Shown here piece by piece: positions 7,395-25,526 of a stretch of DNA of 64,000 nt (the stretch's first letter is position 1; each line of letters begins with the position of its first letter). The DNA comes from Spirochaetota bacterium. Its GTDB lineage: Bacteria > Spirochaetota > UBA4802 > UBA5550. The position numbers and the translations under genes are program-made. Below the pieces are notes generated by a model. The model did no database searches, was not told the DNA's origin, and was given only the letters and a program-made list of their open reading frames with translations. Where the stretch lies: the NCBI GenBank assembly GCA_036848375.1, contig DAIUKG010000024.1, positions 126 to 64,125 on the forward strand. The letters run 5' to 3'.

Positions 7395-8090
7395 ATGAAA
7401 ATCTTCGCCATATCGGATCTGCACGGGGATTATAAATATCTCTGCTACGCGCAGGAAAAAATAAAGGATGCTGACCTGGTCACCATTTCAGGAGACATCT
7501 CGCGCTCGGGCAAAATAGACAGCGCGCAGAAAATCATCGAATACATTGAAAAACTCAACCGGAACATCCTGGCAGTGCACGGAAACTGGGACAGGGCGGA
7601 AGTTCTGGACCTGCTCGAGGAAAAGGGCTACAGTATTCACGCTTCAGGCAGGGTAATCGGTGAATTCGGCTTTTTCGGGGTCGGAGGGTCAAATCCCACA
7701 CCGATGAAAACATCCTCTGAATACAGTGAAGATGAAATTCTGGACTTTCTGAAACAGGGATTCCAGTCCGTTAAAACAGCGAAAAAAATCATCCTGGTTT
7801 CGCACACCCCTCCCCTGAACACCAGGGACAGGACCTTTCTCGGGCTCAGGGGAGGAAGTCAGGTGATACGGGACTTTATAACAGACCATGGGATTTATCT
7901 GTGCCTGTGCGGGCACATTCATGAGGCCAAGGGTACGGCCCGGCTGAACAGCTGCACCGTGGTTAATCCGGGTTCATTTAAAAAAGGGAAATACAGCATT
8001 GTGACCTTCTCCGGAGAGTTTCCCGTTATGGTCGATCAGGGCAAAATCAAAAGACCGATTCTGCACCGCTTCACGAAAAAAAATAATTAG
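7395..8090 (+). CDS. Metallophosphoesterase (calcineurin-like, Icc-related)
   Basis: Start moved to ATG 7395 (AAGGAG RBS); SDLHG, SGDI, HGNWD, SHTPP, CGHIHE motifs. Confidence 0.88.
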   Translation: MKIFAISDLHGDYKYLCYAQEKIKDADLVTISGDISRSGKIDSAQKIIEYIEKLNRNILAVHGNWDRAEVLDLLEEKGYSIHASGRVIGEFGFFGVGGSNPTPMKTSSEYSEDEILDFLKQGFQSVKTAKKIILVSHTPPLNTRDRTFLGLRGGSQVIRDFITDHGIYLCLCGHIHEAKGTARLNSCTVVNPGSFKKGKYSIVTFSGEFPVMVDQGKIKRPILHRFTKKNN

Positions 8091-8148
8091 GTGCCTGTTC
8101 TCCGAACCATTTAAATCACAACCTGATCCGGCAGCCTTTCAAAGTCTC

Positions 8149-8177
8149 TTGACAAGGAGGCTTATATCTCTCATAAT
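8149..8177 (+). promoter_or_regulatory. Sigma70-type promoter of the HAMP-TSUP operon
   Basis: TTGACA (8149-8154), 17-nt spacer, CATAAT (8172-8177), upstream of ATG 8200. Confidence 0.6.
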
Positions 8178-8199
8178 ATTAAGTCCACAGGGCCAGGAC

Positions 8200-8976
8200 A
8201 TGATACTGCTCAATAAAAAACCGACATCCCGACTAAAGAAGAAACTTCTTCTTTACTTTCTTCTGATTTCAATCGTGTCTATTTCAGTCAGCGCGGAAAT
8301 CATTTTTGAAGTGAGTTCATCAAGGTTTAAAAACTCGATTAAAGATTCCTTTTATTCCCAGTGCGATAAAAAGATTCCCGCAAAAGACCTTGAATCGATA
8401 AAAAACAAAATGGATGATGACGTGCTTTTCTCCGCCATCAACGACCTCCGCAACAGGATGATCCTTCTTCTGCTGGTAATCTCCGCCAGTATCGTGGCAG
8501 CACTCATCCTGTTCACCAGAGACATCGTATCACCCATGGATGACATGGTTGAAGCAACAAAGAAAATCGCGGACGGAGACCTGACCGTGTCGGTACCGGT
8601 CATCAGCAATGACGAGATCGGCCAGATCGGGGACCTGATCAACAGCATGAACGAAAAACTCCTGGACATGATCATACAGGTCAAACAGGACCTGAACCGC
8701 CACAAGGACAAAATGAAAGTCGCGGCCAGCATGATCAACGACCTTATTGGCAGCAAAAGGACGGGGCGCATTATGGAGAATAAAAAAATGCGCCTCAGCG
8801 ATTTCAGAACAATAATCAAAGCGGGCAGGGACATGGTCAACCTGCTTGAAATAATGTCATCCGACCTGACGTCGCTTCAGAACTTTGTCAATATGTACAA
8901 GACCTACACCCTGAAAACGGAACTCTCCCAGGATGAGATTGAAGACGCGATCAAGGACTATGAAACAAGAACATAG
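8200..8976 (+). CDS. Two-TM HAMP-domain protein with no kinase or MCP output domain (copy A)
   Basis: TM1 LLLYFLLISIVSISV; TM2 MILLLLVISASIVAALILF; HAMP SPMDDMVEATKKIADGDLTV..DEIGQIGDLINSM; about 100-aa helical tail; no H-box. Confidence 0.8.
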   Translation: MILLNKKPTSRLKKKLLLYFLLISIVSISVSAEIIFEVSSSRFKNSIKDSFYSQCDKKIPAKDLESIKNKMDDDVLFSAINDLRNRMILLLLVISASIVAALILFTRDIVSPMDDMVEATKKIADGDLTVSVPVISNDEIGQIGDLINSMNEKLLDMIIQVKQDLNRHKDKMKVAASMINDLIGSKRTGRIMENKKMRLSDFRTIIKAGRDMVNLLEIMSSDLTSLQNFVNMYKTYTLKTELSQDEIEDAIKDYETRT

Positions 8977-8999
8977 AGACGAACCAGAGGCCTGAAAAA

Positions 9000-9776
9000 A
9001 TGAGTTTTGAATACTGGTACATGTTTCCCGTGTCTATCGTTATCGCCATTCTGGCGAATTCATCGGGGTTTTCGGGAGGGGTTCTTTTCCAACCAATATA
9101 CAACCTCCTTCTGCACATTCCCATCCAGAACGCCGTAGCGACAGGGATCGCCACCGAAACCGTGGGCATGACCAGCGGCGCGATCCGGTATATCTGGTAT
9201 AAGATGGTGGAGCTGCCCATAGGCTTCACGATGATCATGCTCGCGATCCCCGGCATCGTTATCGGGAACCACGCGCTTCTTGTTATTAATGGAGACCTGC
9301 TCAAACTCACGCTCGGGGTTATCATCCTGGGAATCGCGACCATGCAACTCGTGAACGCGCTGCGCCACCATTTCGGGACCAGGGAAAACATCCCCATTGA
9401 AGACATTTACGGATACATGTGGGTGCCGCCAATCAGCGGATTTTTCTCGGCGACAACCGGAACAGGGATATGCGAACTGTCACAGCCCGTTCTGGAAAAA
9501 GGCCTGAATATAAAAACCAAACGGGCGAACGCGACCGCAATCCTGATTGAAGCTACCGCCGACTGGATAATAACCATTCTAAACCTCCACGCGGGACTTA
9601 TCATGTGGGAGCTGTGGGTCTTTACCGGGACCGGCGTCATAATAGGCGGTCAAATCGGCCCGTATGTTTCACGTTACCTGCCGGAAAAATTAATAAAAAT
9701 CATCTTCTCAATAGCTATAATTGTAATCGGGATATTTTATGTTTACAAAGGCATAATGTGGATAGTTACTCGATAA
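9000..9776 (+). CDS. TSUP (sulfite exporter TauE/SafE family) permease (copy A)
   Basis: 258 aa, highly hydrophobic; SSGFSGGVLFQP and second-repeat GFFSATTGTG; GGQIGP near C-terminus. Confidence 0.85.
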   Translation: MSFEYWYMFPVSIVIAILANSSGFSGGVLFQPIYNLLLHIPIQNAVATGIATETVGMTSGAIRYIWYKMVELPIGFTMIMLAIPGIVIGNHALLVINGDLLKLTLGVIILGIATMQLVNALRHHFGTRENIPIEDIYGYMWVPPISGFFSATTGTGICELSQPVLEKGLNIKTKRANATAILIEATADWIITILNLHAGLIMWELWVFTGTGVIIGGQIGPYVSRYLPEKLIKIIFSIAIIVIGIFYVYKGIMWIVTR

Positions 9777-9819
9777 TGGGCCCGATCAAAGGCTTCAAAC
9801 AAAAAATACGGATTAAACC

Positions 9820-10470
9820 ATGATAAAGGGCCGCAGCAACAAAGACAAATCAAAAGGCACCAGCCTCAGGAAGAAAATGATTTTCTATTTTCTGTTAATC
9901 GCCATTGCGAATATTTTCGTGGCAGGGGAAATCCTCTGGGAAATAAAAAGCGCCGATTACCGCACGAACGTCGCCCAGGAGGTCACCCTCATAAAAGAAG
10001 GCGCCAAACCGGTCACCCATGTTTATATGATTCTCGACAACCTGTCCCGGAAATTCGTGATCATGATTCTCATTCTCATTGTGGTTTCCGCCGTGGTGCT
10101 CTTTCTCTTTGTATGGCAGATCGCCTCACCGATCCAGTACATGATAAACCAGGCGGAAAAAATGGCCGATGGAGACCTGAGCATCCGTATTGATATTAAA
10201 TCAAAAGATGAAATGGCGGTGCTGGGAAAACTGGTCAATGAACTGTCGATTAACCTTCAGGAAGTGCTGGCCCAGCTTGAACGCATGACCGCAGACATGC
10301 ACCTTGCGATTGAGCTTTTCAAGGAAGACCTCGGGCAGAAGCCGATAAGGCTCTCAACGATTAATCAGAACATCGCGAAAATCGAAAGCCATCTTAAAAA
10401 ACTCGACATACTCAAGGACATGTTTGTCCTTTATACGATTGAAAGTTTCAAAAAAAACATCGACAGCTGA
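9820..10470 (+). CDS. Two-TM HAMP-domain protein with no output domain (copy B)
   Basis: TM1 MIFYFLLIAIANIFV; TM2 FVIMILILIVVSAVVLFLFV; HAMP SPIQYMINQAEKMADGDLSI..DEMAVLGKLVNEL; paralog of 8200-8976. Confidence 0.8.
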   Translation: MIKGRSNKDKSKGTSLRKKMIFYFLLIAIANIFVAGEILWEIKSADYRTNVAQEVTLIKEGAKPVTHVYMILDNLSRKFVIMILILIVVSAVVLFLFVWQIASPIQYMINQAEKMADGDLSIRIDIKSKDEMAVLGKLVNELSINLQEVLAQLERMTADMHLAIELFKEDLGQKPIRLSTINQNIAKIESHLKKLDILKDMFVLYTIESFKKNIDS

Positions 10471-10503
10471 CAAATAAAAAAAGCAATCAGGTTAAACCGA
10501 CAC

Positions 10504-11274
10504 ATGGAAAACTGGGTCCTTATACCAATCGGCATCACCATCGCAAGCTTCGCGTCTCTGATCGGCATCGGCGGCGGCCTGCTGTGGGCCCCCTATTTCA
10601 TCCTCTTCAGGGGGTTTGACCCGCAGAAGGCGATCCTGTTCTCGTTTCTGATACAGTTCGTCGGCATGGGTTCAGCGACATCCTGGAACGTACGGCACAG
10701 GAATATTTACTGGAAACTGGTCCTCTTTTTTCTTCCGGTCATCGTTGTCGGAGTAGTTATCGGGGCATTTCTCAATCAGCGCGTGGCAGACCCGCGGCTG
10801 CTTAAAGGCATACTCGGCGTTGTGAGCATTTTCGTGTCACTATACTTCGCCTTTCAGACCGAAAGGTATGATACGGTTCTCACCCTGGACAAATCCACCA
10901 AGCCCACGGTACAGCAGCAGGGGCAGAGCCTGTTTTTCGGGATACTGTCCGGCCTCTTCTCGGTAGGAATCAGCGATTTTCTGGTCCCGGTCATGAGGAG
11001 CAAGCTGAAGATTCCGATGAAGTATTCGATCGGGACCAGCCTGTTTCTGAACTTCTGCCTTGCTCTCACCGGCGCGTTAACGCATCTTTCGTTTACCTCT
11101 CACACCCTGAACAGGGAAACGATGAGCATCCTCCTGTTCAGCTGGATCGGTGTTTTTATCGGCGGGCAGCTTGGCCCGAAGCTGGCCAACATCATCGAGG
11201 AAGGGCGGCTGAAAGAAATTTTTATCTTCACCCTGCTGCTTATAGGCATACACCTGATCTATAAAACACTTTAA
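10504..11274 (+). CDS. TSUP (TauE/SafE family) permease (copy B)
   Basis: LIGIGGGLLWAP, GILSGLFSVG, GGQLGP motifs; about 8 hydrophobic segments. Confidence 0.87.
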   Translation: MENWVLIPIGITIASFASLIGIGGGLLWAPYFILFRGFDPQKAILFSFLIQFVGMGSATSWNVRHRNIYWKLVLFFLPVIVVGVVIGAFLNQRVADPRLLKGILGVVSIFVSLYFAFQTERYDTVLTLDKSTKPTVQQQGQSLFFGILSGLFSVGISDFLVPVMRSKLKIPMKYSIGTSLFLNFCLALTGALTHLSFTSHTLNRETMSILLFSWIGVFIGGQLGPKLANIIEEGRLKEIFIFTLLLIGIHLIYKTL

Positions 11275-11325
11275 TATGCTGTAAATTGAAAAAGGTAGCA
11301 GTATAATTTTGAGGGTAACGTAGTT

Positions 11326-11439
11326 TTGTCATTCCGGTTTTGCATCTTCCGAGTTTGCAAATACCGGAATCTCATGCGATAAATTCATGAATATTTTCTA
11401 TGAGATCCCGGTATTACCTTCGGTAAACCGGGATGACAA
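11326..11439. repeat. Palindromic cloverleaf (REP/RPE-like) element, copy 1
   Basis: TTGTC-[ATTCCGG..CCGGAAT]-[CTCAT..ATGAG]-[ATCCCGGT..ACCGGGAT]-GACAA; same architecture as 60658-60746. Confidence 0.8.
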
Positions 11440-11517
11440 CAAAATGTGTTATGAAACGGTTGCCCCTAAAAATAATTTACTACCATTGAAAAACAAAACC
11501 CCGGGCAAATATTTCGT

Positions 11518-11547
11518 TTGACATTTTAATCGCATTAATTTTACTAT
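11518..11547 (+). promoter_or_regulatory. Putative sigma70 promoter of pyrB-pyrC (near-leaderless transcript)
   Basis: TTGACA 11518-11523, 18-nt spacer, TACTAT 11542-11547; ATG at 11558; no Shine-Dalgarno. Confidence 0.5.
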
Positions 11548-11557
11548 AACTTTCGGT

Positions 11558-12511
11558 ATGAGTTCACTTAACAGAAAAGACCTCCTTGATATCCAGTCGC
11601 TTTCAACTGAAGAAATTAATTTAATCTGTAATTCTGCCAGGTATTTCAAAGACATCTTCACCAGGTCGGTGAAAAGCGTGCCCGTTCTCAGAGGGAAAAC
11701 CGTGTGCACGCTCTTTTACGAACCGTCTACCCGGACAAGGATCAGCTTTGAACTGGCGGCCAAACGTCTGTCAGCGGACATGATCAACGTATCGGTCTCC
11801 ACGTCAAGCGTGGTGAAAGGAGAGTCTCTCATTGATACGGTGCATACGCTGGAGGCCATGAAGGCTGATTATATTGTAATGAGACATGCGGCGTCACTGG
11901 CGCCGCATTTTTTATCTAAAAACATTAAAGCTTCGGTCATCAACGCCGGCGACGGCTTCCATGCGCATCCGACACAGGCCCTGCTTGACGCGTATTCAAT
12001 TCTTGAAAGAAAGGGAACCCTCGAAGGGCTCCGCATCGGCATAATCGGAGACATCAGGCATTCGAGGGTCGCGCGGTCAGACATCGAGGTGTTCAAAAAA
12101 CTCGGCGCCAGTGTTGTTCTGTGCGGGCCGCCGACCCTGGTCCCTGACGAGTTCAAGGTCTACGACGTGGACATCTCATACAATCTCGATGACATCCTTC
12201 CCGACCTCGATGTCATAAACATGCTCCGCATACAGAAAGAACGGCAGAAGGGGTCGCTGTTCCCCTCCCTGAGGGAGTATCACCGCCACTTCGCCCTGAC
12301 CGAGGACAGGCTTAAAAAATGCAAAAGCGACATCATCCTGATGCACCCGGGCCCGATCAACCGGGGAATAGAAGTCGACAACTCCGTGGCTGAAAGCCCC
12401 AATATCATCATGAACGAACAGGTCACCAACGGTGTCGCGGTGAGGATGGCGATATTCTACCTGCTCGCCGGAGGGGCGCCGCTTGAAGACATGAAAGAGG
12501 AACAGTCCTGA
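11558..12511 (+). CDS. pyrB: Aspartate carbamoyltransferase catalytic subunit
   Basis: [42 protein letters not shown] motifs. Confidence 0.97.
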
Positions 12512-18092: not shown

Positions 18093-21000
18093 CTACCTGC
18101 AGGGGAAACCGGGCAAGAAGAGCCGTATTCCCTGCCAGGAGGCAGGATGTTTCATCCTGTCTTTTCCGTACACGTTCATCAACGCAGAACGGAAGGCAGC
18201 GCTGACCGGAATATTTTTCACCAACCCCGCATAATATGATTCAGTAAAGACCGGGCAGTTTATTCCCTTTTCCGGGGCCAGGTTCGCGACAACCGGGCTT
18301 TTCCTGCAGAAAAACAGTGCCGCACGATAACAGGACTTCCCCGCGTCATTCATGTCGCCGGAAAAATAGACGCTCCGTAATGCGGCAGTGCGCCCGCAGG
18401 CGTCAGAAAGGGCCCGGTCCAGCGCCGGGGTTTGATCCAGAAAATGAAGCAAAGACGTTACCCTGCCGCACTCATCTGTGAGGGACATCCCCGCCTCGCG
18501 CAGGGCCGCTGCTTCAAGAATCCCCTGTACCGAATCTCTTTTGCCTGAAACGGTCACCGCATCAGTCCCGCGCGAACGCCCCCGGTCCGGGCAATAACTC
18601 GTCAGCGATGAAAGAAACACAAGGGGACGCTGTATCCCGAGCATAGGCCCCCGGCCCGCGACCTCGAAAGGAACCGTGAAAAGGTCCCGGTCACTCATGA
18701 GGTAAAGGGTCCCGGAGCCGCTGTCCCTGACAAGATCAGGGAACAGCTCTTCCAGGCCCGAAGATATGTCATCCACACTTCCCAGCTCTTTAACGGTCGC
18801 ATAATAGCGGTCCGCAAGATCCCTGGCCCGGGTGAATCCGCCCTTAATGATGACGGCCTTTTTCGCGTTTTTTGAAACAAGCCAGAAAAAGACATCATCA
18901 TTGTTTCGAGCCATGCACGCGAACGTATCACCGGGCTGAAGACGGGTATCCAGGGACGAGGTGATCTTTTCAATGTCCGGGCCCGAAATTTTTTCATCAC
19001 CGGAGAGCAGAAGGTTTTTTTCCGTAAATGCGGCAAGCGCCCGGGAATAGTGTCCCGTGGCCATGTTAAAGCGAATGTACTCATCATGCAGCCGCGCGGT
19101 AATTTCGGCCATTCCCGGAAACGCGATTACCGAACGGTCCTGGTTGAGCATTTCCCGGGCTTCGAGAAACATCCTCTCAAAGGCAGCACCCTCAGCCGCT
19201 GTGGCGGCCGGAAGCTTCGCCAGGCGCGCGAGTTCCATGCGCATCCTGATGGTGTCGAGCCAGTACCGGTCAGCGGTGTCCGCAGGGGGATCAAGGGCTT
19301 TGACGCGGGTCCCGGCACTGCTGAACAGGCCGCCCGAGGCCTCTATTTCAGCCAGCAGCAGCTCATAGCGCGCGCTGTCCTCAGGCAGTAGCGCAAGAGC
19401 GGCCCCCTCTTTCGCCAGAGAATAAGCCTTTTCATGCATTCCGTAAGCGGCAAGGGCCCTTGAAACAGCGAAGAACATCCTTGCCCTGAGCAGCGGAAGA
19501 GGCAGGGCGCGGATGTTTGCAACGAGTGGTTCTCCCCGGTTATCGCTGCTCACCTTCGTATGAAACGTGCCATCCTTCACTGACTCGTGAATGCCGAAAC
19601 AGAAATCGAGCCAGAAAGCCCCGTCGCGGACCGGGGCCTTTGCCTCCTGTTCAGTGCCGGCAACTTTTATCCCGGTCAGGGACGACCAGGCGGCCTGCTC
19701 CCTCGTGCTCATGGGGAAAGCCTTTATTCCCTGAAGAATGCCCCGCGACGCGGACACGTGGCCGAACGCGGCACAATACCGCGACAGCAGCAGCGCGAGC
19801 CTTCCCTGTTCAACCAGGCAGTTTTTTTTCACGGCATGGTTTTCTTTCATGCCTTCAGGAACCGATCCTGTTTCACCCAGGGCGAGTACCGGGGAATAAT
19901 AATCAGGGTCACCGAAACCCTGTAGATGCGGTGCGTTCAGGGACATGAATTCACGTGCCTGGCCGCAGCTTCCCTGCGCAAGCAGCAGATATATCTTCAG
20001 CGACAGGAGCTTGCGGTAATACCGGTTTCCGGGCTGGAGTGTTTCAAGGCCGGATGAAACCGCTTCCAGGGCCCGGTCGTACCGCGAAAGAATCATATAC
20101 ACGCGGGCAAGCTCAGCCGAAAGCGAAGCCCTTTCAGACCGGGGCAGGGCCCTGATATGCCGCATGAGCGCCGCCAGGGCGTCATCCGCGCGGCCGGACG
20201 CGAGCAGCTGTTCCGCGCGCTCAGTTGCCTGCGCGCGCGCCTTATCGTCCGCGCCTGCCGGCGCACCCGCGGATGCGCAGCCTCCAAGGACCGCGGTAAA
20301 GCCGCCTGCCGGAACCCGGCGCAGGGCCTCCGCCGCACCTGCGGCGGCAATGTCACTGATCAGTGCCCGCGCCGCGTTCAGATCGTTCCCGGAAACAGTA
20401 ACCGCGCAGGGGATACCCGCATACCGTGCCGCGCTGGCAAACAGCAGCAGGTCCCGAAACGATGGTTCTTTTACCCGCGCCACAAGGCACTCGGGCCTGA
20501 AATACCTGACGCGGAACAGCATCTCGGCAACAGCCGCGGCATCCCCGGTCTGTGTTATCGCTGATGATACCGGGAGAAGGGACTCATCGCCGCTGAATTC
20601 CGGGTCGCTGAAAAGCTTTTCGTTCTCCGTATAAACTGTGGCTTCGCCGCCGCAGGGGTAACCGTCCCCGCCGGTGACGTCTTGTATATCTTCCAGGCCG
20701 GCGACGAGCTGCACCGGGGAAGCGGTCACATTCATGGCCGGTCCCTTTTTCAGCAGATCAAACAGGGTGCTGTTCAGCACCAGGAAGCGCTTCGTCGCCT
20801 GCTCAGGGAACGTAACGAACGGGGTTTCGGCCGCGGTTGACAGTTTCCCGGCCTGCAGTTTTCCCTGGAACAGGGTGAGCACAGAGCGGGTGTTTCCGAC
20901 GTCGATGATCCGACTAACAGCGGCGTCACGGTACACGGGAAGATTCGGCAAGCGGGCGGGCACGGCATACGGGCACCGTCTGCCTTTCAGTCTGAGCTGA

Positions 21001-24000
21001 GAATAAAGGGCGTTCAGATGCGCGCGCGCATCACGGTAGTTCCCGGCAAGGCGCTGATACCGGTCAGACTCTTCATCATCCCCCCTGATACGGGCTTCAG
21101 AGAGCACGGAGCCTGATTCGATCAGCGCGTTCTGGGCCCTGACATAACTGATGTAGCCATTCCTGTCTTCTTCCGCAGCGAGCTCCGGGCCTGACACGTA
21201 AAACATGAGCACGCTGACCAGGGCGTTTTTATGATCGCACATCAGGAACGCGGCCGGATAGTTCCCCTCTTCGAGAAGGATGTTCACGTAAGCATCGCAG
21301 AGCTGTTCAACCATTGAAACAGAGCTCCTGAAAAGAAGCGGCGTTTCGGCGACCAGGGCCAGGGCTTTGTCAAAGTGTTCGGCCGCGGCTTCGCGAAAAT
21401 CATCCCCCTCCACGATTCTTCCCGGCCCGGCAAGGAACATGCCTGTCTGAAAACAGGCCTGAAACATCAACTGCGGGTCGGCGATCCTCTCGCTGAGGTC
21501 CCTGGCGTCGATATACGCGGTGTATGCCTCGTCGTGCATGAAAATCTTTTCATGGCAGGTGCCCGCGTTGAGCAGAAGCTTTACCTGCAAACGAAGGTCG
21601 CCTTTTTCTTGAGCGGCTTTTACGGCGTCGTTAAAAAGGGCCAGCGAGGACGAATAAAGCCGGTAGCGCTCCTGCTCGCGCCGCAGGTACTCGCCGGTCG
21701 GCAGCGGGGCCTGCCCTGGCGCGGAGCCGGGCGCGAGCTCGGCCCGGTAAAAATTCAGCACCGCGAGCGCCACGGAAATCGAAAAGTTTTTCTCGCTTCC
21801 TTCCTGCGCGATTTTTTCCTCCAGGGAGTTGATCTCGGCAGCGGCTACTTTTCTCTTTTCAGACTTCGCTTTTTTCTCGAGCAGTTTGCGCTCTTCTTTC
21901 ATGCGCATATCGTAAAAGTTCTGTTTATAGGATTCCAGGGCCAGCGCGAGGCGGTCAATCGCATCCAGGGGATTTTCCGCCAGAGTGATATTGTTGTCTA
22001 TTGCTGAAGCATAGCAGTTCACCAGGTTCATGGTTGAGGTGAAGATCCCTTCCTGGCTGTCGTGTTTCAGCGCGTCGTTTCTGGCCCTGGTAAAGTATTC
22101 CAGCGCCGCGGCATATTTGCCTCTCCGGTAATAGTTATATCCAATATTGTTCAGGCATGCCACCGCACCATCCAGGTCCATGTCCCGGCCCGACCGGCGC
22201 AGGAGCCGTTCCTTCTGTTCAAGGTAGCGGGACGATTTTTTCAGGCTGCCCCGCTTCTCCGCGAGCTCGGACTGAAGCGAGAGGTTCAGGAGTTTCTTGT
22301 CCGTGGTGTCCAGGGGCTGAAAGATCCTGCTTTCGCCGATGACCACTGAATCAAGCGAGAGGTTCCAGAGGGGAAGAGGTCCCAGGCCGAAAAATTTGAT
22401 CAGCAGCGGGTATTTCCTTCTGTCATTCGGATACCGGGAGAGCAGGTCCCATGCGGTCGAAAGATATTTCTCGGAACCCGCATAATCGCCGGTCTGCATG
22501 CGGCAGAAGGCCATCTCCTGGTAATAACGCGCCCGGTCGATCGCCAGCGAGTACCGGTCAGCCAGTTCGATGATCCTGCCGTACCAGTCGAGAGCCTTCG
22601 CGTATTCTCCCTGCACACGCTTGAACAGGGCACTATAACGGTACAGGAGATACAACTGCTCTGCGTTGCGCCTGCCGCTCCCGGCTATATTCGTGGATGA
22701 ATAGGCCTGGAGCACCCGCTCCATTATTCCCGCGGCCTGCTTTTCCTCCCCCTGCTGCCACAGGCTGTAGGCAAGGTGATAGTTAAAAAGCGCTTCTTCG
22801 GTGAGCGAAGAAAACCGCTTTTTCAGCTCCGAGCTCTTGCGGTAATGGAAAAGTGAGCGGCTGTAATTCCTGAGCAGAAAATACGTGTTGGCCAGGTTGA
22901 GGTGGATGTCCCCCTCCTTATCCGGGTCACGGCCTTCACTGTTCATCTCAAGGGCCTTTTCAAGCAGGGGGATGTTCTTTTCAAGCAGGTGTGCGGGAAA
23001 ATGTCTGCTTATGGTGGTGTCGTCATCGGCGGAGCTTTCACGTTTCAGGTCAAGGTACTGATACATCCAGCACTGGAGGATGAACGAATCCACAAAGGAA
23101 TCGTCAATGAAAATCGACCAGTTGCAGTGCAGCAGCGACTCTTTCATAAAAGCGACCAGGCCCGCGGTGCCGACCTTTTCGGAAGGGGTGGAGCCGATGT
23201 TCTTCTTTTCCTGGACAAGGGCTTTCTGGCACAGAATATAGGCGAGCCCGTAAAGGTGCGCTTTGTCGAAATCCATGCGCGCCTTTGCAAGGTTTTCCCG
23301 GTACGCGGTTTCAACATCGTCCAGGCCCTTTTCCCCGGTTTCCCGTACCGCGTCGATATACAGGACATGGGCCCTGGGAGCGTGAAGGTTGTACAGCTCC
23401 TCGAACCTGCCCAGGCGGTGGATATAGCCCATGAGCGAGGTGTAATCCCGGTACAGAGCGGCCGCGTCAGAGTACCTGCCGGCTTCCCTGAATTCACGGC
23501 CCCTTTCCTCGTAATAGCGTATCAACCGGTCAAGCCGCCCGGTTATTTCAGGGTCTTTCCATTCGTTGCGGTACCGGTACAGCGCGTTGTAATAATCAAC
23601 CGCTGCCCGGTCATTCTCGCCGGCCTTCAGGTCAATGTCACCCAGAAGAATATTGGCCAGGTAACCCACAAGGGTCGTGGGACGCGCCTGGCCGAGCGCC
23701 TCAACAAGCAGCGCCCTGGCCCCGGCAGAGTCTCCCTGTTCAAACAGGGCCCTGGCCTGGCAGTAGTGCAGGAGCGGCCTGACCTGCCGGTCATCGCCGT
23801 GTTCCCGGAGTTTTTTCACGAGCATGGCGCGCCTCTTCGCCGGGTCCCTGACCGCTTCGGCAAGGGCGCATGTTTTCAGGATTACTTCATTGACCTGGTA
23901 ATACTTCCCCTTTTCCAGAACTACAAGCGATGACGGTGAAAGCGCGTGTTCGAGGTCTTTTTCAATTATTGACGCGCATTTCCGGTGGATGCCCGCCATA

Positions 24001-25526
24001 CGTTCAAAGGAAACATGGCTGTCGGTGATTTCCCGGTACAGCCTGAGTGCTTCTACCCGACGGCCGGTAGAGTAATAATAATCACCCAGGTCTTCAAGCG
24101 CATAGGGCAGCAGATCATCCCCCGCCTGCCGGGCCTTTTTCACATGCGATTCAAGAATTCTACCGCCCGCACCGGGGTCAGAGCGCGAGCCGAGAAAACG
24201 CAGCATCACGCCCGCGTAGCTGCTTTTACCCGCGCTGAGCAGTTCCAGCTTTGAAACCGCTGATTCATAGCCGCTGACGTCCCCGGTGCGGCCGCAGTAG
24301 AGGCCCGCGGAGACCAGGGCCCGCGCGGTGTACACCCGGGACCGGAGGTCGCTGTTCGCACCGAAGTGGTCATACACGCTCAGAAGGCAGGCCACATAGC
24401 GGTCGGGGTCATCCTCCTCCTGTAAAAACTTGTTGGCCAGTTCCAGCTGCGACTCCGCGCCGGTTTTTACCGGAATAATACCCGTATCGGGCAGAAGCGC
24501 GAGGTTGATGTTGCTCCCGTTCTGGGTCGAGTAGATGACTATTCCGCGGTACTGTTCGGTGCCGTAAACCGGGTACCACCTTCCCGCGAAACACGACTGC
24601 GAGGGAAGGGTAAGAGGATATGACTGATTTTTTTTGAGGTCAATATAATACAGGCGCGCCGCGTCCCTGAGGTCAAGGGCGCCGTTGCCGTCGCTGTCCC
24701 GTTCGATTGCCGTATAAATAATTTCGTTGCCGGACATAAACACCGGGTACATCGTGATCCGCCCCGGGGCCGGGACGAACGTCTCACGGTTCGACGTCAG
24801 GTCGTGGATGCACAGGTCCCCGCTCCGGCTGTTCTTATATGATATGTAGACAATCCTTCCGCCGTCAGGTGAAAAGCAGGGGTACACGCCTCCGTCACGC
24901 GTCACCTGCACCGCGTTTTTGCCGTTGCGGTCAATAAGCCAGATATTTTCAGAGCCGCTTCTGTTGGATGAAAAAGCGATCCGCGACCCGTTCGGGGACC
25001 ACACCGGGTCGTGGTCGCTGACCAGGCGGACAGACCCGGTGTCTTTTTCCCTCAGCGAGCTTATGTTCACTGATTTGAGTTTATAGTCGAGGATGTCCTT
25101 TTTCTCCGCTTCTTCAATTATGGACTCGGGGTCGATGTCCGCAAGGTACACGTCTCCCTCGGGGTCTTCCCTGGTCGAAATAAAGGCAAGGGTCCTGCCG
25201 TCCGGCGACAGCGACGGAGAGATGTCCGCCGAGGGATGAACCGTGATCCTCACCTGGGTGATATCGCTGATCCGGCGGAGGTACAGGTCGAAGTTGCCGT
25301 CCTGGCGGTCTGATGAATAGATGAGGAATTTCCCGTCGGGAGTGATGATCCCGTCCCGCTCAACCGAACTCTCGACCGTGAGCGGGATCTCCTTTCCGGT
25401 ACCGAACCTGAACTCCTCGTTGAGAAGGGCCCTGTAGCTGAACAGGACCTCAACCGGGGATTTCCCGCTGTCACAGGCCGCGGCCAGCACCAGAAAAAGC
25501 GTTACGACAAGGCATGCCCGTTTCAT
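18093..25526 (-). CDS. Giant 2477-aa lipoprotein: PD40/TolB-like propeller + TPR solenoid + degenerate CHAT-like C-terminus
   Basis: Lipobox LAAAC; PD40 repeats (TPDGKFLIYSSDR, SPDGRTLAFIST, SPNGSRIAFSSNR, SPDGGRIVY); TPR-like (HLNLANTYFLLRNY, CLNNIGYNYYRRGKY); CHAT-like LFTVPFEV..HPASWQGIRL. Confidence 0.75.
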   Translation of the reverse strand: MKRACLVVTLFLVLAAACDSGKSPVEVLFSYRALLNEEFRFGTGKEIPLTVESSVERDGIITPDGKFLIYSSDRQDGNFDLYLRRISDITQVRITVHPSADISPSLSPDGRTLAFISTREDPEGDVYLADIDPESIIEEAEKKDILDYKLKSVNISSLREKDTGSVRLVSDHDPVWSPNGSRIAFSSNRSGSENIWLIDRNGKNAVQVTRDGGVYPCFSPDGGRIVYISYKNSRSGDLCIHDLTSNRETFVPAPGRITMYPVFMSGNEIIYTAIERDSDGNGALDLRDAARLYYIDLKKNQSYPLTLPSQSCFAGRWYPVYGTEQYRGIVIYSTQNGSNINLALLPDTGIIPVKTGAESQLELANKFLQEEDDPDRYVACLLSVYDHFGANSDLRSRVYTARALVSAGLYCGRTGDVSGYESAVSKLELLSAGKSSYAGVMLRFLGSRSDPGAGGRILESHVKKARQAGDDLLPYALEDLGDYYYSTGRRVEALRLYREITDSHVSFERMAGIHRKCASIIEKDLEHALSPSSLVVLEKGKYYQVNEVILKTCALAEAVRDPAKRRAMLVKKLREHGDDRQVRPLLHYCQARALFEQGDSAGARALLVEALGQARPTTLVGYLANILLGDIDLKAGENDRAAVDYYNALYRYRNEWKDPEITGRLDRLIRYYEERGREFREAGRYSDAAALYRDYTSLMGYIHRLGRFEELYNLHAPRAHVLYIDAVRETGEKGLDDVETAYRENLAKARMDFDKAHLYGLAYILCQKALVQEKKNIGSTPSEKVGTAGLVAFMKESLLHCNWSIFIDDSFVDSFILQCWMYQYLDLKRESSADDDTTISRHFPAHLLEKNIPLLEKALEMNSEGRDPDKEGDIHLNLANTYFLLRNYSRSLFHYRKSSELKKRFSSLTEEALFNYHLAYSLWQQGEEKQAAGIMERVLQAYSSTNIAGSGRRNAEQLYLLYRYSALFKRVQGEYAKALDWYGRIIELADRYSLAIDRARYYQEMAFCRMQTGDYAGSEKYLSTAWDLLSRYPNDRRKYPLLIKFFGLGPLPLWNLSLDSVVIGESRIFQPLDTTDKKLLNLSLQSELAEKRGSLKKSSRYLEQKERLLRRSGRDMDLDGAVACLNNIGYNYYRRGKYAAALEYFTRARNDALKHDSQEGIFTSTMNLVNCYASAIDNNITLAENPLDAIDRLALALESYKQNFYDMRMKEERKLLEKKAKSEKRKVAAAEINSLEEKIAQEGSEKNFSISVALAVLNFYRAELAPGSAPGQAPLPTGEYLRREQERYRLYSSSLALFNDAVKAAQEKGDLRLQVKLLLNAGTCHEKIFMHDEAYTAYIDARDLSERIADPQLMFQACFQTGMFLAGPGRIVEGDDFREAAAEHFDKALALVAETPLLFRSSVSMVEQLCDAYVNILLEEGNYPAAFLMCDHKNALVSVLMFYVSGPELAAEEDRNGYISYVRAQNALIESGSVLSEARIRGDDEESDRYQRLAGNYRDARAHLNALYSQLRLKGRRCPYAVPARLPNLPVYRDAAVSRIIDVGNTRSVLTLFQGKLQAGKLSTAAETPFVTFPEQATKRFLVLNSTLFDLLKKGPAMNVTASPVQLVAGLEDIQDVTGGDGYPCGGEATVYTENEKLFSDPEFSGDESLLPVSSAITQTGDAAAVAEMLFRVRYFRPECLVARVKEPSFRDLLLFASAARYAGIPCAVTVSGNDLNAARALISDIAAAGAAEALRRVPAGGFTAVLGGCASAGAPAGADDKARAQATERAEQLLASGRADDALAALMRHIRALPRSERASLSAELARVYMILSRYDRALEAVSSGLETLQPGNRYYRKLLSLKIYLLLAQGSCGQAREFMSLNAPHLQGFGDPDYYSPVLALGETGSVPEGMKENHAVKKNCLVEQGRLALLLSRYCAAFGHVSASRGILQGIKAFPMSTREQAAWSSLTGIKVAGTEQEAKAPVRDGAFWLDFCFGIHESVKDGTFHTKVSSDNRGEPLVANIRALPLPLLRARMFFAVSRALAAYGMHEKAYSLAKEGAALALLPEDSARYELLLAEIEASGGLFSSAGTRVKALDPPADTADRYWLDTIRMRMELARLAKLPAATAAEGAAFERMFLEAREMLNQDRSVIAFPGMAEITARLHDEYIRFNMATGHYSRALAAFTEKNLLLSGDEKISGPDIEKITSSLDTRLQPGDTFACMARNNDDVFFWLVSKNAKKAVIIKGGFTRARDLADRYYATVKELGSVDDISSGLEELFPDLVRDSGSGTLYLMSDRDLFTVPFEVAGRGPMLGIQRPLVFLSSLTSYCPDRGRSRGTDAVTVSGKRDSVQGILEAAALREAGMSLTDECGRVTSLLHFLDQTPALDRALSDACGRTAALRSVYFSGDMNDAGKSCYRAALFFCRKSPVVANLAPEKGINCPVFTESYYAGLVKNIPVSAAFRSALMNVYGKDRMKHPASWQGIRLFLPGFPCR

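Follow-up and report, generated by a model that had tools for sequence, protein, structure and literature searches.

A conserved pairing of output-less HAMP proteins with TSUP permeases, probably a transporter-linked sensory module, in Spirochaetota and in chemotaxis operons of a second phylum

HAMP domains have usually been studied as relays within a single polypeptide chain, and of the widespread transporter families the TSUP permeases count as one of the most poorly understood. In the haloarchaeal pair of sensory rhodopsin II and HtrII (SRII/HtrII), a HAMP transducer with two transmembrane (TM) helices reads its polytopic partner inside the membrane. Af1503 of Archaeoglobus fulgidus, whose extracellular domain is of considerable size, stops directly behind its HAMP domain. 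Those TSUP members that have been characterised are stand-alone permeases in gene clusters for sulfonate or sulfite metabolism. The transducer NpHtrII is mentioned in PMC13446029, while BceS, which operates with the BceAB transporter, is described as a transporter-controlled, intramembrane-sensing kinase for which transporter activity is the signal (bioRxiv 10.1101/2020.02.28.969956). The TauE/SafE/TsaS permeases of the TSUP family correspond to PF01925 and to TC 2.A.102 (Shlykov et al. 2012, cited in PMC11582611). Here, a 64,000-nucleotide stretch from a Spirochaetota bacterium (assembly GCA_036848375.1, contig DAIUKG010000024.1, positions 126 to 64,125), referred to throughout as the window, was analysed for a tandem quartet of genes encoding two HAMP proteins and two TSUP permeases, in the order HAMP-A, TSUP-A, HAMP-B, TSUP-B. 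The analysis established the architecture of these proteins, the strict pairing of cognates, the antiquity of the quartet and its association with genes for methyl-accepting chemotaxis proteins (MCPs) or with che genes in two phyla. The HAMP/TSUP pair is probably an undescribed, transporter-linked sensory module and not a plain sulfite exporter; by analogy, it would be most like SRII/HtrII or BceAB/BceS. Literature searches on the HAMP-only/TSUP pairing (HAMP + TauE, TSUP + HAMP, TauE + MCP + operon) found no paper, and the feature, which is real and conserved, is apparently undescribed.

All four open reading frames were confirmed on the plus strand of the window and in the same direction: HAMP-A (8200–8976, 258 aa), TSUP-A (9000–9776, 258 aa), HAMP-B (9820–10470, 216 aa) and TSUP-B (10504–11274, 256 aa), with intergenic gaps of 23, 43 and 33 bp respectively. 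The first-pass annotation, made from the sequence of the window, had described this order with gaps of 23–43 bp behind one promoter, and both the order and the spacing were borne out. The promoter is a candidate by consensus, being a sigma-70-like TTGACA-N17-CATAAT site (8149–8177, plus strand) that matches at 11 of 12 positions; it ranked first of 13 promoter-like sites between 7300 and 11700, where shuffled sequences produced a mean of 6.3. The gene start had to be moved, as the first reading frame was listed as 8149–8976 and its opening TTG (8149) is where the -35 hexamer begins; the true start of HAMP-A is most likely the ATG at 8200, which gives a protein of 258 aa identical to the public gene call P0001.

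Both HAMP proteins belong to the HAMP profile PF00672 (46.2 bits for HAMP-A and 43.3 bits, over residues 96–148, for HAMP-B; cutoff 25), and both permeases matched the TauE profile PF01925 over its full length, from position 1–2 to 236–237 of 237 (109.8 bits for TSUP-A and 137.9 bits for TSUP-B; cutoff 32.6). These were the only two Pfam families matched in the four proteins. The HAMP proteins had been taken for paralogues, and their alignment agreed with this (29% identity over 182 aa, E = 3e-23). Similarly, the two permeases were as strongly diverged as had been claimed (25% identity, E = 3e-14).

The pairing of the two gene types was evaluated in a scan of one genome per species, which produced 59 loci (cited below by L numbers where they must be told apart). 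A TSUP-A orthologue was found directly 3' of HAMP-A, on the same strand, in all 52 loci with enough sequence, with a median gap of 9 bp (range -5 to 98 bp, n = 52); since the permease follows its HAMP partner in 52 of 52 related loci, the arrangement is far beyond chance, and the neighbourhood conservation that the first-pass annotation had proposed to look for is plainly present. The full ordered quartet occurred in Spirochaetota loci L001, L006, L007, L016 and L054, while in L002 pair B was inverted relative to pair A. Both pairs were also carried by metagenome loci L068, L070 and L073, of which the last two stop within or just past HAMP-B. HAMP-B orthologues with 54–78% identity were present in L001, L002, L006, L007 and L016, and further ones in metagenome loci L068–L073, among which L071 had a HAMP-B gene beside which no TSUP-B was detected. 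The ordered quartet was found besides in metagenome-assembled genomes (MAGs) labelled Deltaproteobacteria or Thermodesulfobacteriota (L056–L058 and L064–L067, hereafter the delta loci), together with a partial delta locus labelled Candidatus Zymogenus (L055).

When the permeases were arranged in a neighbour-joining tree, one clade comprised the first permease of each quartet from both phyla and another the second permeases; TSUP-B accordingly grouped with the second permeases of the delta loci and not with TSUP-A. The first permeases of spirochaetes and delta loci were 39% identical, against 23% between the first and second permeases of spirochaetes, and HAMP-1 behaved alike. The tree thus splits A from B and not phylum from phylum, and so the A/B duplication is older than the module's dispersal over the two phyla; as judged from these sequences, cognate HAMP/TSUP pairs have been kept together ever since that ancient duplication.

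The ordered quartet might be thought to reflect one obligate complex of all four proteins, including a HAMP-A/HAMP-B heterodimer, which is a strong version of what the first-pass annotation had suggested. Its retention in two phyla, where A and B are differentiated lineages, and the tight gaps in the window are in keeping with this. However, pair A occurred without an adjacent pair B in 40 of 46 Spirochaetota species loci (counted at this locus), pair B stood alone in L069 and L072 and was inverted in L002, and the quartet had decayed in L059; an obligate four-component or heterodimeric system is consequently improbable. Given the 40 loci without an adjacent B and the two in which B is alone, each pair appears to be sufficient in itself, even though the ordered quartet is of ancient origin. 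The decayed quartet (L059:6001–6763, in a Spirochaetota MAG) lay between a metallophosphoesterase gene and pyrB; it had a frameshift in the N-terminus of HAMP-A and then a deletion, across which the TM2 region of HAMP-A runs straight into the C-terminal half of TSUP-B. The module has therefore been lost in some lineages.

The first-pass annotation had also described the HAMP proteins as stopping without a histidine kinase, GGDEF or MCP signalling hairpin, and Pfam and NCBIfam agreed. Pfam detected no HisKA, HATPase, GGDEF or MCPsignal in HAMP-A or HAMP-B, the last being absent even at E ≤ 1. Both therefore fall outside the MCP family, since the PF00015 signalling hairpin is not in the chain, and outside the histidine kinases, having neither a DHp (HisKA) nor a HATPase_c domain. 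Kinase and MCP models of NCBIfam matched the HAMP region alone and far below their cutoffs (18–49 bits against 194–1000 for the kinase models), and no curated NCBIfam model covers the HAMP or TSUP proteins of the quartet, the sole matches being far below cutoff. A profile search of the PDB with HAMP-A gave matches limited to the HAMP regions of Tsr, Af1503 and EnvZ chimeras, and Foldseek with the HAMP-A model returned just weak HAMP-DHp and MCP matches, all with E > 0.05. His168 in the HAMP-A tail was not invariant in an alignment of 22 sequences. Finally, a profile of the tail alone was compared with 1.84 billion representative sequences and gave 24 matches, of which the longest did not exceed 334 aa and none had an output domain attached. 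Because this profile met 24 proteins and none above 334 aa, the tail was considered to be specific to the family and never fused to an output domain. A hidden output domain in the tails, for which a search with hidden Markov models (HMMs) had been proposed, was ruled out by Pfam (at E ≤ 1), NCBIfam, the PDB profile search, the AlphaFold2 (AF2) model with Foldseek and the tail profile.

The other doubt raised at the outset was that the HAMP genes are truncated, frameshifted or pseudogenised MCPs or histidine kinases, and JGI does label many HAMP-A homologues 'methyl-accepting chemotaxis protein'. When HAMP-A was searched against 5.8 billion proteins, 237 homologues were returned, of which 120 were listed. 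PF00672 was the sole domain in each of the 120 and their length was conserved at 249–297 aa, except for one of 311 aa and one fragment of 190 aa; those with a name came from Spirochaetota MAGs. The C-terminal motif described below was invariant, MCPsignal, HisKA and HATPase were not matched, the 24 representatives met by the tail profile included no longer protein, and a full-length permease gene begins within 23–43 bp of each HAMP gene. Truncation was refuted by the HAMP-only homologues, their conserved length, the invariant motif and the tail profile, and has next to no probability.

HAMP-A begins with a basic N-terminal motif (SRLKKKL), followed by TM1 (residues ~17–38), which ends in E33-x-x-x-E37, a periplasmic loop (~39–82), TM2 (~83–107), the HAMP domain (~108–160; 8521–8679 in the window, plus strand) and a helical-hairpin tail without a Pfam match (161–258; 8680–8973, plus strand). 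HAMP-B has the same plan with a shorter loop and tail. In the 22-sequence alignment, the N-motif S-R-L-K-K-K-L, TM1 (...SVSAEIILE...), TM2 and the HAMP signatures were invariant or nearly so, including P112, G126, D138, E139, I140 and G141 of the HAMP domain, and the tail carried an invariant F-x-x-M-Y-K-T motif near the C-terminus. Mean column identity was 0.94 for the N-motif, 0.85 for TM1, 0.81 for TM2 and 0.82 for HAMP, compared with 0.48–0.65 for the tail and 0.42 for the loop, which is both short (~44 aa in HAMP-A, ~33 aa in HAMP-B) and poorly conserved. The fold of HAMP-A is modelled by AF2 (pLDDT 78) as a HAMP domain after TM2 followed by a helical hairpin; the predicted helices (11–38, 78–124, 139–184, 199–231 and 244–257) run from TM1 through a small helical loop to TM2, which continues into AS1, then to AS2 as the long helix 139–184, a return helix and a short end helix.

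Four HAMP subfamilies, comprising A and B and the first and second HAMP proteins of the delta loci, have in common an S/T-x-L-[KR]3-[LM] motif, a TM1 end of E-x-x-x-[ED], the HAMP signatures P, GD and DEIG, and a C-terminal F-x-h-[Y/F]. Their tails were barely alignable (HHalign probability 12–18% for A against B or delta-1), the delta-1 and delta-2 tails giving 86%. Delta HAMP-1 (L057:4679–5509, L064:10001–10825, L067:3058–3879) had an extra cytoplasmic N-terminal extension rich in Arg and Lys, with a W-D-G-x-D-R-R-K motif and repeated E-R-R-K, which was absent from the Spirochaetota proteins.

The pairs can be placed beside the described systems on these characters. Like SRII/HtrII, they combine a polytopic partner with a separate 2-TM protein that has little extracellular part, a membrane-proximal HAMP domain and a link to chemotaxis. 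Unlike HtrII, which has a full MCP signalling hairpin in its chain, HAMP-A and HAMP-B end after a hairpin of ~100 and ~65 aa respectively, and their putative partner in the membrane is a TSUP permease, not a rhodopsin. BceS is likewise a 2-TM HAMP protein with a minimal extracellular loop and a gene beside that of a transporter, and both the minimal loop and the adjoining transporter gene were found here. BceS differs in its DHp and catalytic domains and in having a response regulator as its cognate, where HAMP-A and HAMP-B have no kinase module, and BceAB is an ABC transporter and not a TSUP. Af1503 is likewise a membrane receptor in which the HAMP domain is canonical and an output domain cannot be recognised, but it has no conserved hairpin tail and no TSUP partner is known for it, whereas HAMP-A has both.

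Both permeases are assignable to the TSUP (TauE/SafE) family, with a full-length profile match, an all-helical polytopic form and a length of ~250 aa; the AF2 model of TSUP-A was all-helical and polytopic (pLDDT 78, pTM 0.75). The best fold match of TSUP-A was BacA/UppP (TM-score 0.55–0.57, E = 0.02), which is not significant, and no solved TSUP structure was found in the PDB by sequence. TSUP-A was 70–87% identical across the Spirochaetota loci, compared with 38–77% for HAMP-A. Unlike the characterised TSUPs, TSUP-A and TSUP-B have an obligatory HAMP partner and no sulfur-metabolism neighbours, no such gene being seen beside the pair in any locus examined; sulfite, a sulfonate or some other small anion as substrate is a guess at the level of the family, from the Pfam family name.

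Neighbouring genes were counted in the 46 Spirochaetota species loci that had at least 1.5 kb of downstream sequence, after clustering of the neighbouring reading frames. An MCP-type gene abutted pair A in 32 of the 46. In 27 loci, L005 included, this was an MCP of ~565 aa directly 3' of TSUP-A, with gaps of a few bp, which combined an MCPsignal domain (90 bits) with a polytopic N-domain of ~230 aa without a Pfam family and lacked HAMP. An HMM of this N-domain scored 330–381 bits on all 27 and had no other match in the window or in the loci, and the 27 MCPs were therefore taken to be one orthologue group. This MCP (L003:7552–9249 and 26 orthologues) was found only directly after HAMP-A/TSUP-A. 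In three further loci the downstream slot was occupied by C9, a divergent MCP-like gene (MCPsignal 29.6 bits, below cutoff), while an MCP was immediately upstream in L041 and L053 and on both sides in L052 (MCPsignal 94–106 bits where scanned). Elsewhere among the 46, an MCP was 2.6–2.7 kb away in two loci, six were quartets and six had housekeeping neighbours only. The flanks of the HAMP-TSUP-MCP trio varied: on the upstream side were a metallophosphoesterase, a B12-radical-SAM gene, a hybrid kinase together with a LuxR-type regulator, or Lgt, and on the downstream side pyrB, C9 or other genes; it was therefore argued that selection has acted on the trio itself.

Other signalling genes were seen beside some of the pairs. 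A small PilZ-domain protein (PF07238, 42.5 bits; cluster c37) was encoded directly 5' of HAMP-A in L010 (5528–5890), L016 and L027, which hints at a cyclic di-GMP link. A hybrid kinase (REC-HisKA_3-HATPase) and a LuxR-type response regulator were directly 5' of HAMP-A in L032 (3282–5785), L033, L037, L038 and L048. A second kind of signalling neighbour was an 858-aa polytopic HAMP-SpoIIE (PP2C) phosphatase, directly 3' of the lone HAMP-B/TSUP-B in L069 (7565–10141).

The delta loci associated the quartet with chemotaxis in a different manner. In all seven full loci (L056, L057, L058 and L064–L067), Pfam placed it between cheY and cheA. The operon begins with (REC)-CheB-(REC-PatA_N-REC-CheB)-REC-CheR-CheW, an MCP (dCache-HAMP-MCPsignal) and CheY, and continues through HAMP1-TSUP1-HAMP2-TSUP2 to CheA (Hpt-HhH-dimerisation-HATPase-CheW), CheB and a ParA-like gene. 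The partial locus L055 had CheW, an MCP and HAMP-1 before the end of the contig. The operon encodes three CheB-type proteins and a ParA-like ATPase, and its CheA (L058:8972–12388, L064:13173–16709) contained a helix-hairpin-helix insert (HHH_5/HHH_2) between the Hpt and dimerisation domains.

From this evidence, each HAMP/TSUP pair was tentatively interpreted, at somewhat less than an even chance, as a transporter-coupled transducer that talks to chemoreceptor arrays. The HAMP protein, presumably as a homodimer, would dock on the permease through its conserved TM helices and its N-terminal juxtamembrane motif. The short, variable periplasmic loop probably holds no ligand site; instead, the ligand would be handled by the permease, whose conformational or transport state the HAMP protein would read, in the way that HtrII does with sensory rhodopsin II and BceS with the BceAB transporter. 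That state would be turned into a conformational signal in the protein's own hairpin, which would then hand it in trans to the arrays. Contact within the membrane is suggested by how well the TM helices are conserved, by the polar face of TM1, which bears an acidic pair, and by the variability of the loop; the strong conservation in TM1 and TM2 agrees with a putative in-membrane HAMP-TSUP complex, the AF2 models being of single chains. Signalling in trans to the arrays is suggested because the HAMP protein has no output of its own and its relatives stand in MCP and che neighbourhoods, and this option, which the first-pass annotation had offered among others, thereby gained real support from two phyla.

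A narrower form of the transducer model, and a rather unlikely one, is that a chemoreceptor has been split over three proteins, with the TSUP handling the ligand, the HAMP-only protein acting as relay and a separate MCP controlling the kinase, which in Spirochaetota would be the HAMP-less polytopic protein. If so, the flux of small-anion transport would become taxis, and pairs A and B would give two specificities to one array.

Several observations weigh against the transducer model. Placement in or beside che and MCP genes was found in independent lineages of the family, but not in the window, where tblastn detected no MCP or che gene in 64 kb and the HMM for the N-domain of the ~565-aa MCP had no match; nor was an MCP or che gene seen beside the quartet in the other Spirochaetota quartet loci. 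Hence, the link to chemotaxis is well supported for the family, and for the window locus it would follow by homology only. The six Spirochaetota loci with housekeeping neighbours alone point the same way. As most of the Spirochaetota loci belong to a single order-level group, some of their synteny may have been inherited and not selected. Lastly, the poor alignment of the tails would be odd if all docked on one conserved Che partner.

The same absences, in the window locus, the other Spirochaetota quartets and the six further loci without a signalling neighbour, are what would be expected if the HAMP protein were a regulatory or stabilising subunit of the TSUP, concerned with transport and with no chemotaxis link here, and if the adjacency of MCPs were a matter of co-regulation or inherited synteny. 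HAMP/TSUP pairing is indeed the sole universal feature. Yet the quartet was embedded independently between cheY and cheA in a second phylum, the MCP-type gene abutted the pair in 32 of 46 Spirochaetota loci amid variable flanks, and pair B adjoined a polytopic HAMP-SpoIIE phosphatase in L069; a role in transport alone was accordingly thought unlikely.

The direction of signalling might also be the reverse, with the HAMP protein as regulator and the permease as effector, such that CheY-P, the state of an MCP or cyclic di-GMP acts on the tail, the HAMP domain relays this to the TM helices and these gate the TSUP. LapD provides a precedent for HAMP signalling from the inside out (PMC4359373), and the genes immediately upstream would be suitable sources of input: a single-domain CheY gene directly 5' of HAMP-1 in every full delta locus, the PilZ protein directly 5' of HAMP-A in three loci, and the hybrid kinase with its LuxR-type regulator in five. 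TSUP-A was also very strongly constrained, as would fit a working transporter, with 75–90% identity among 120 clusters listed, all of them matches of at least 75%. Against this, the usual polarity of HAMP domains is from membrane to cytoplasm, the tail was the least conserved cytoplasmic part (0.48–0.65), and the constant neighbour in Spirochaetota was an MCP, which is an input protein and not a response regulator. Inside-out regulation was therefore judged on the whole doubtful, while being a serious rival to the transducer model.

The quartet in the window is preceded by a beta-lactamase-family gene and a metallophosphoesterase gene, and is followed by a 283-bp spacer and then by pyrB and pyrC, which have a promoter-like site of their own (11518–11547). 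The part of the spacer between the TSUP-B stop and this site (11275–11460) was strongly structured, with an RNA minimum free energy of -56.8 kcal/mol (z = -5.0 against shuffled sequences) and two GC-rich hairpins (~11328–11375 and ~11404–11437) without a T-run; its sequence was unique in the window, and in the close relative L001 the corresponding gap was just 88 bp. The structured stretch may be an operon terminator, an insulator or an inserted element. Rfam gave no match over 8000–11700, the spacer included, and the PADLOC models for anti-phage defence gave none at E ≤ 0.01 for any of the four quartet proteins. Unrelated to the quartet, the minus strand of the window carries a reading frame of 2477 aa (18093–25526) with weak or faint Pfam matches to Tricorn_N, PD40 and TPR, preceded by a FecR-domain gene.

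If the HAMP-only/TSUP pair is indeed tied to MCPs and che operons, it would be a new route by which the state of a transporter is fed into bacterial chemotaxis. TSUP proteins would then gain a signalling role, and the pair would serve as a natural example of a HAMP domain acting in trans on a partner. The routine annotations of these proteins as 'methyl-accepting chemotaxis protein' and 'sulfite exporter TauE/SafE' would be corrected accordingly.

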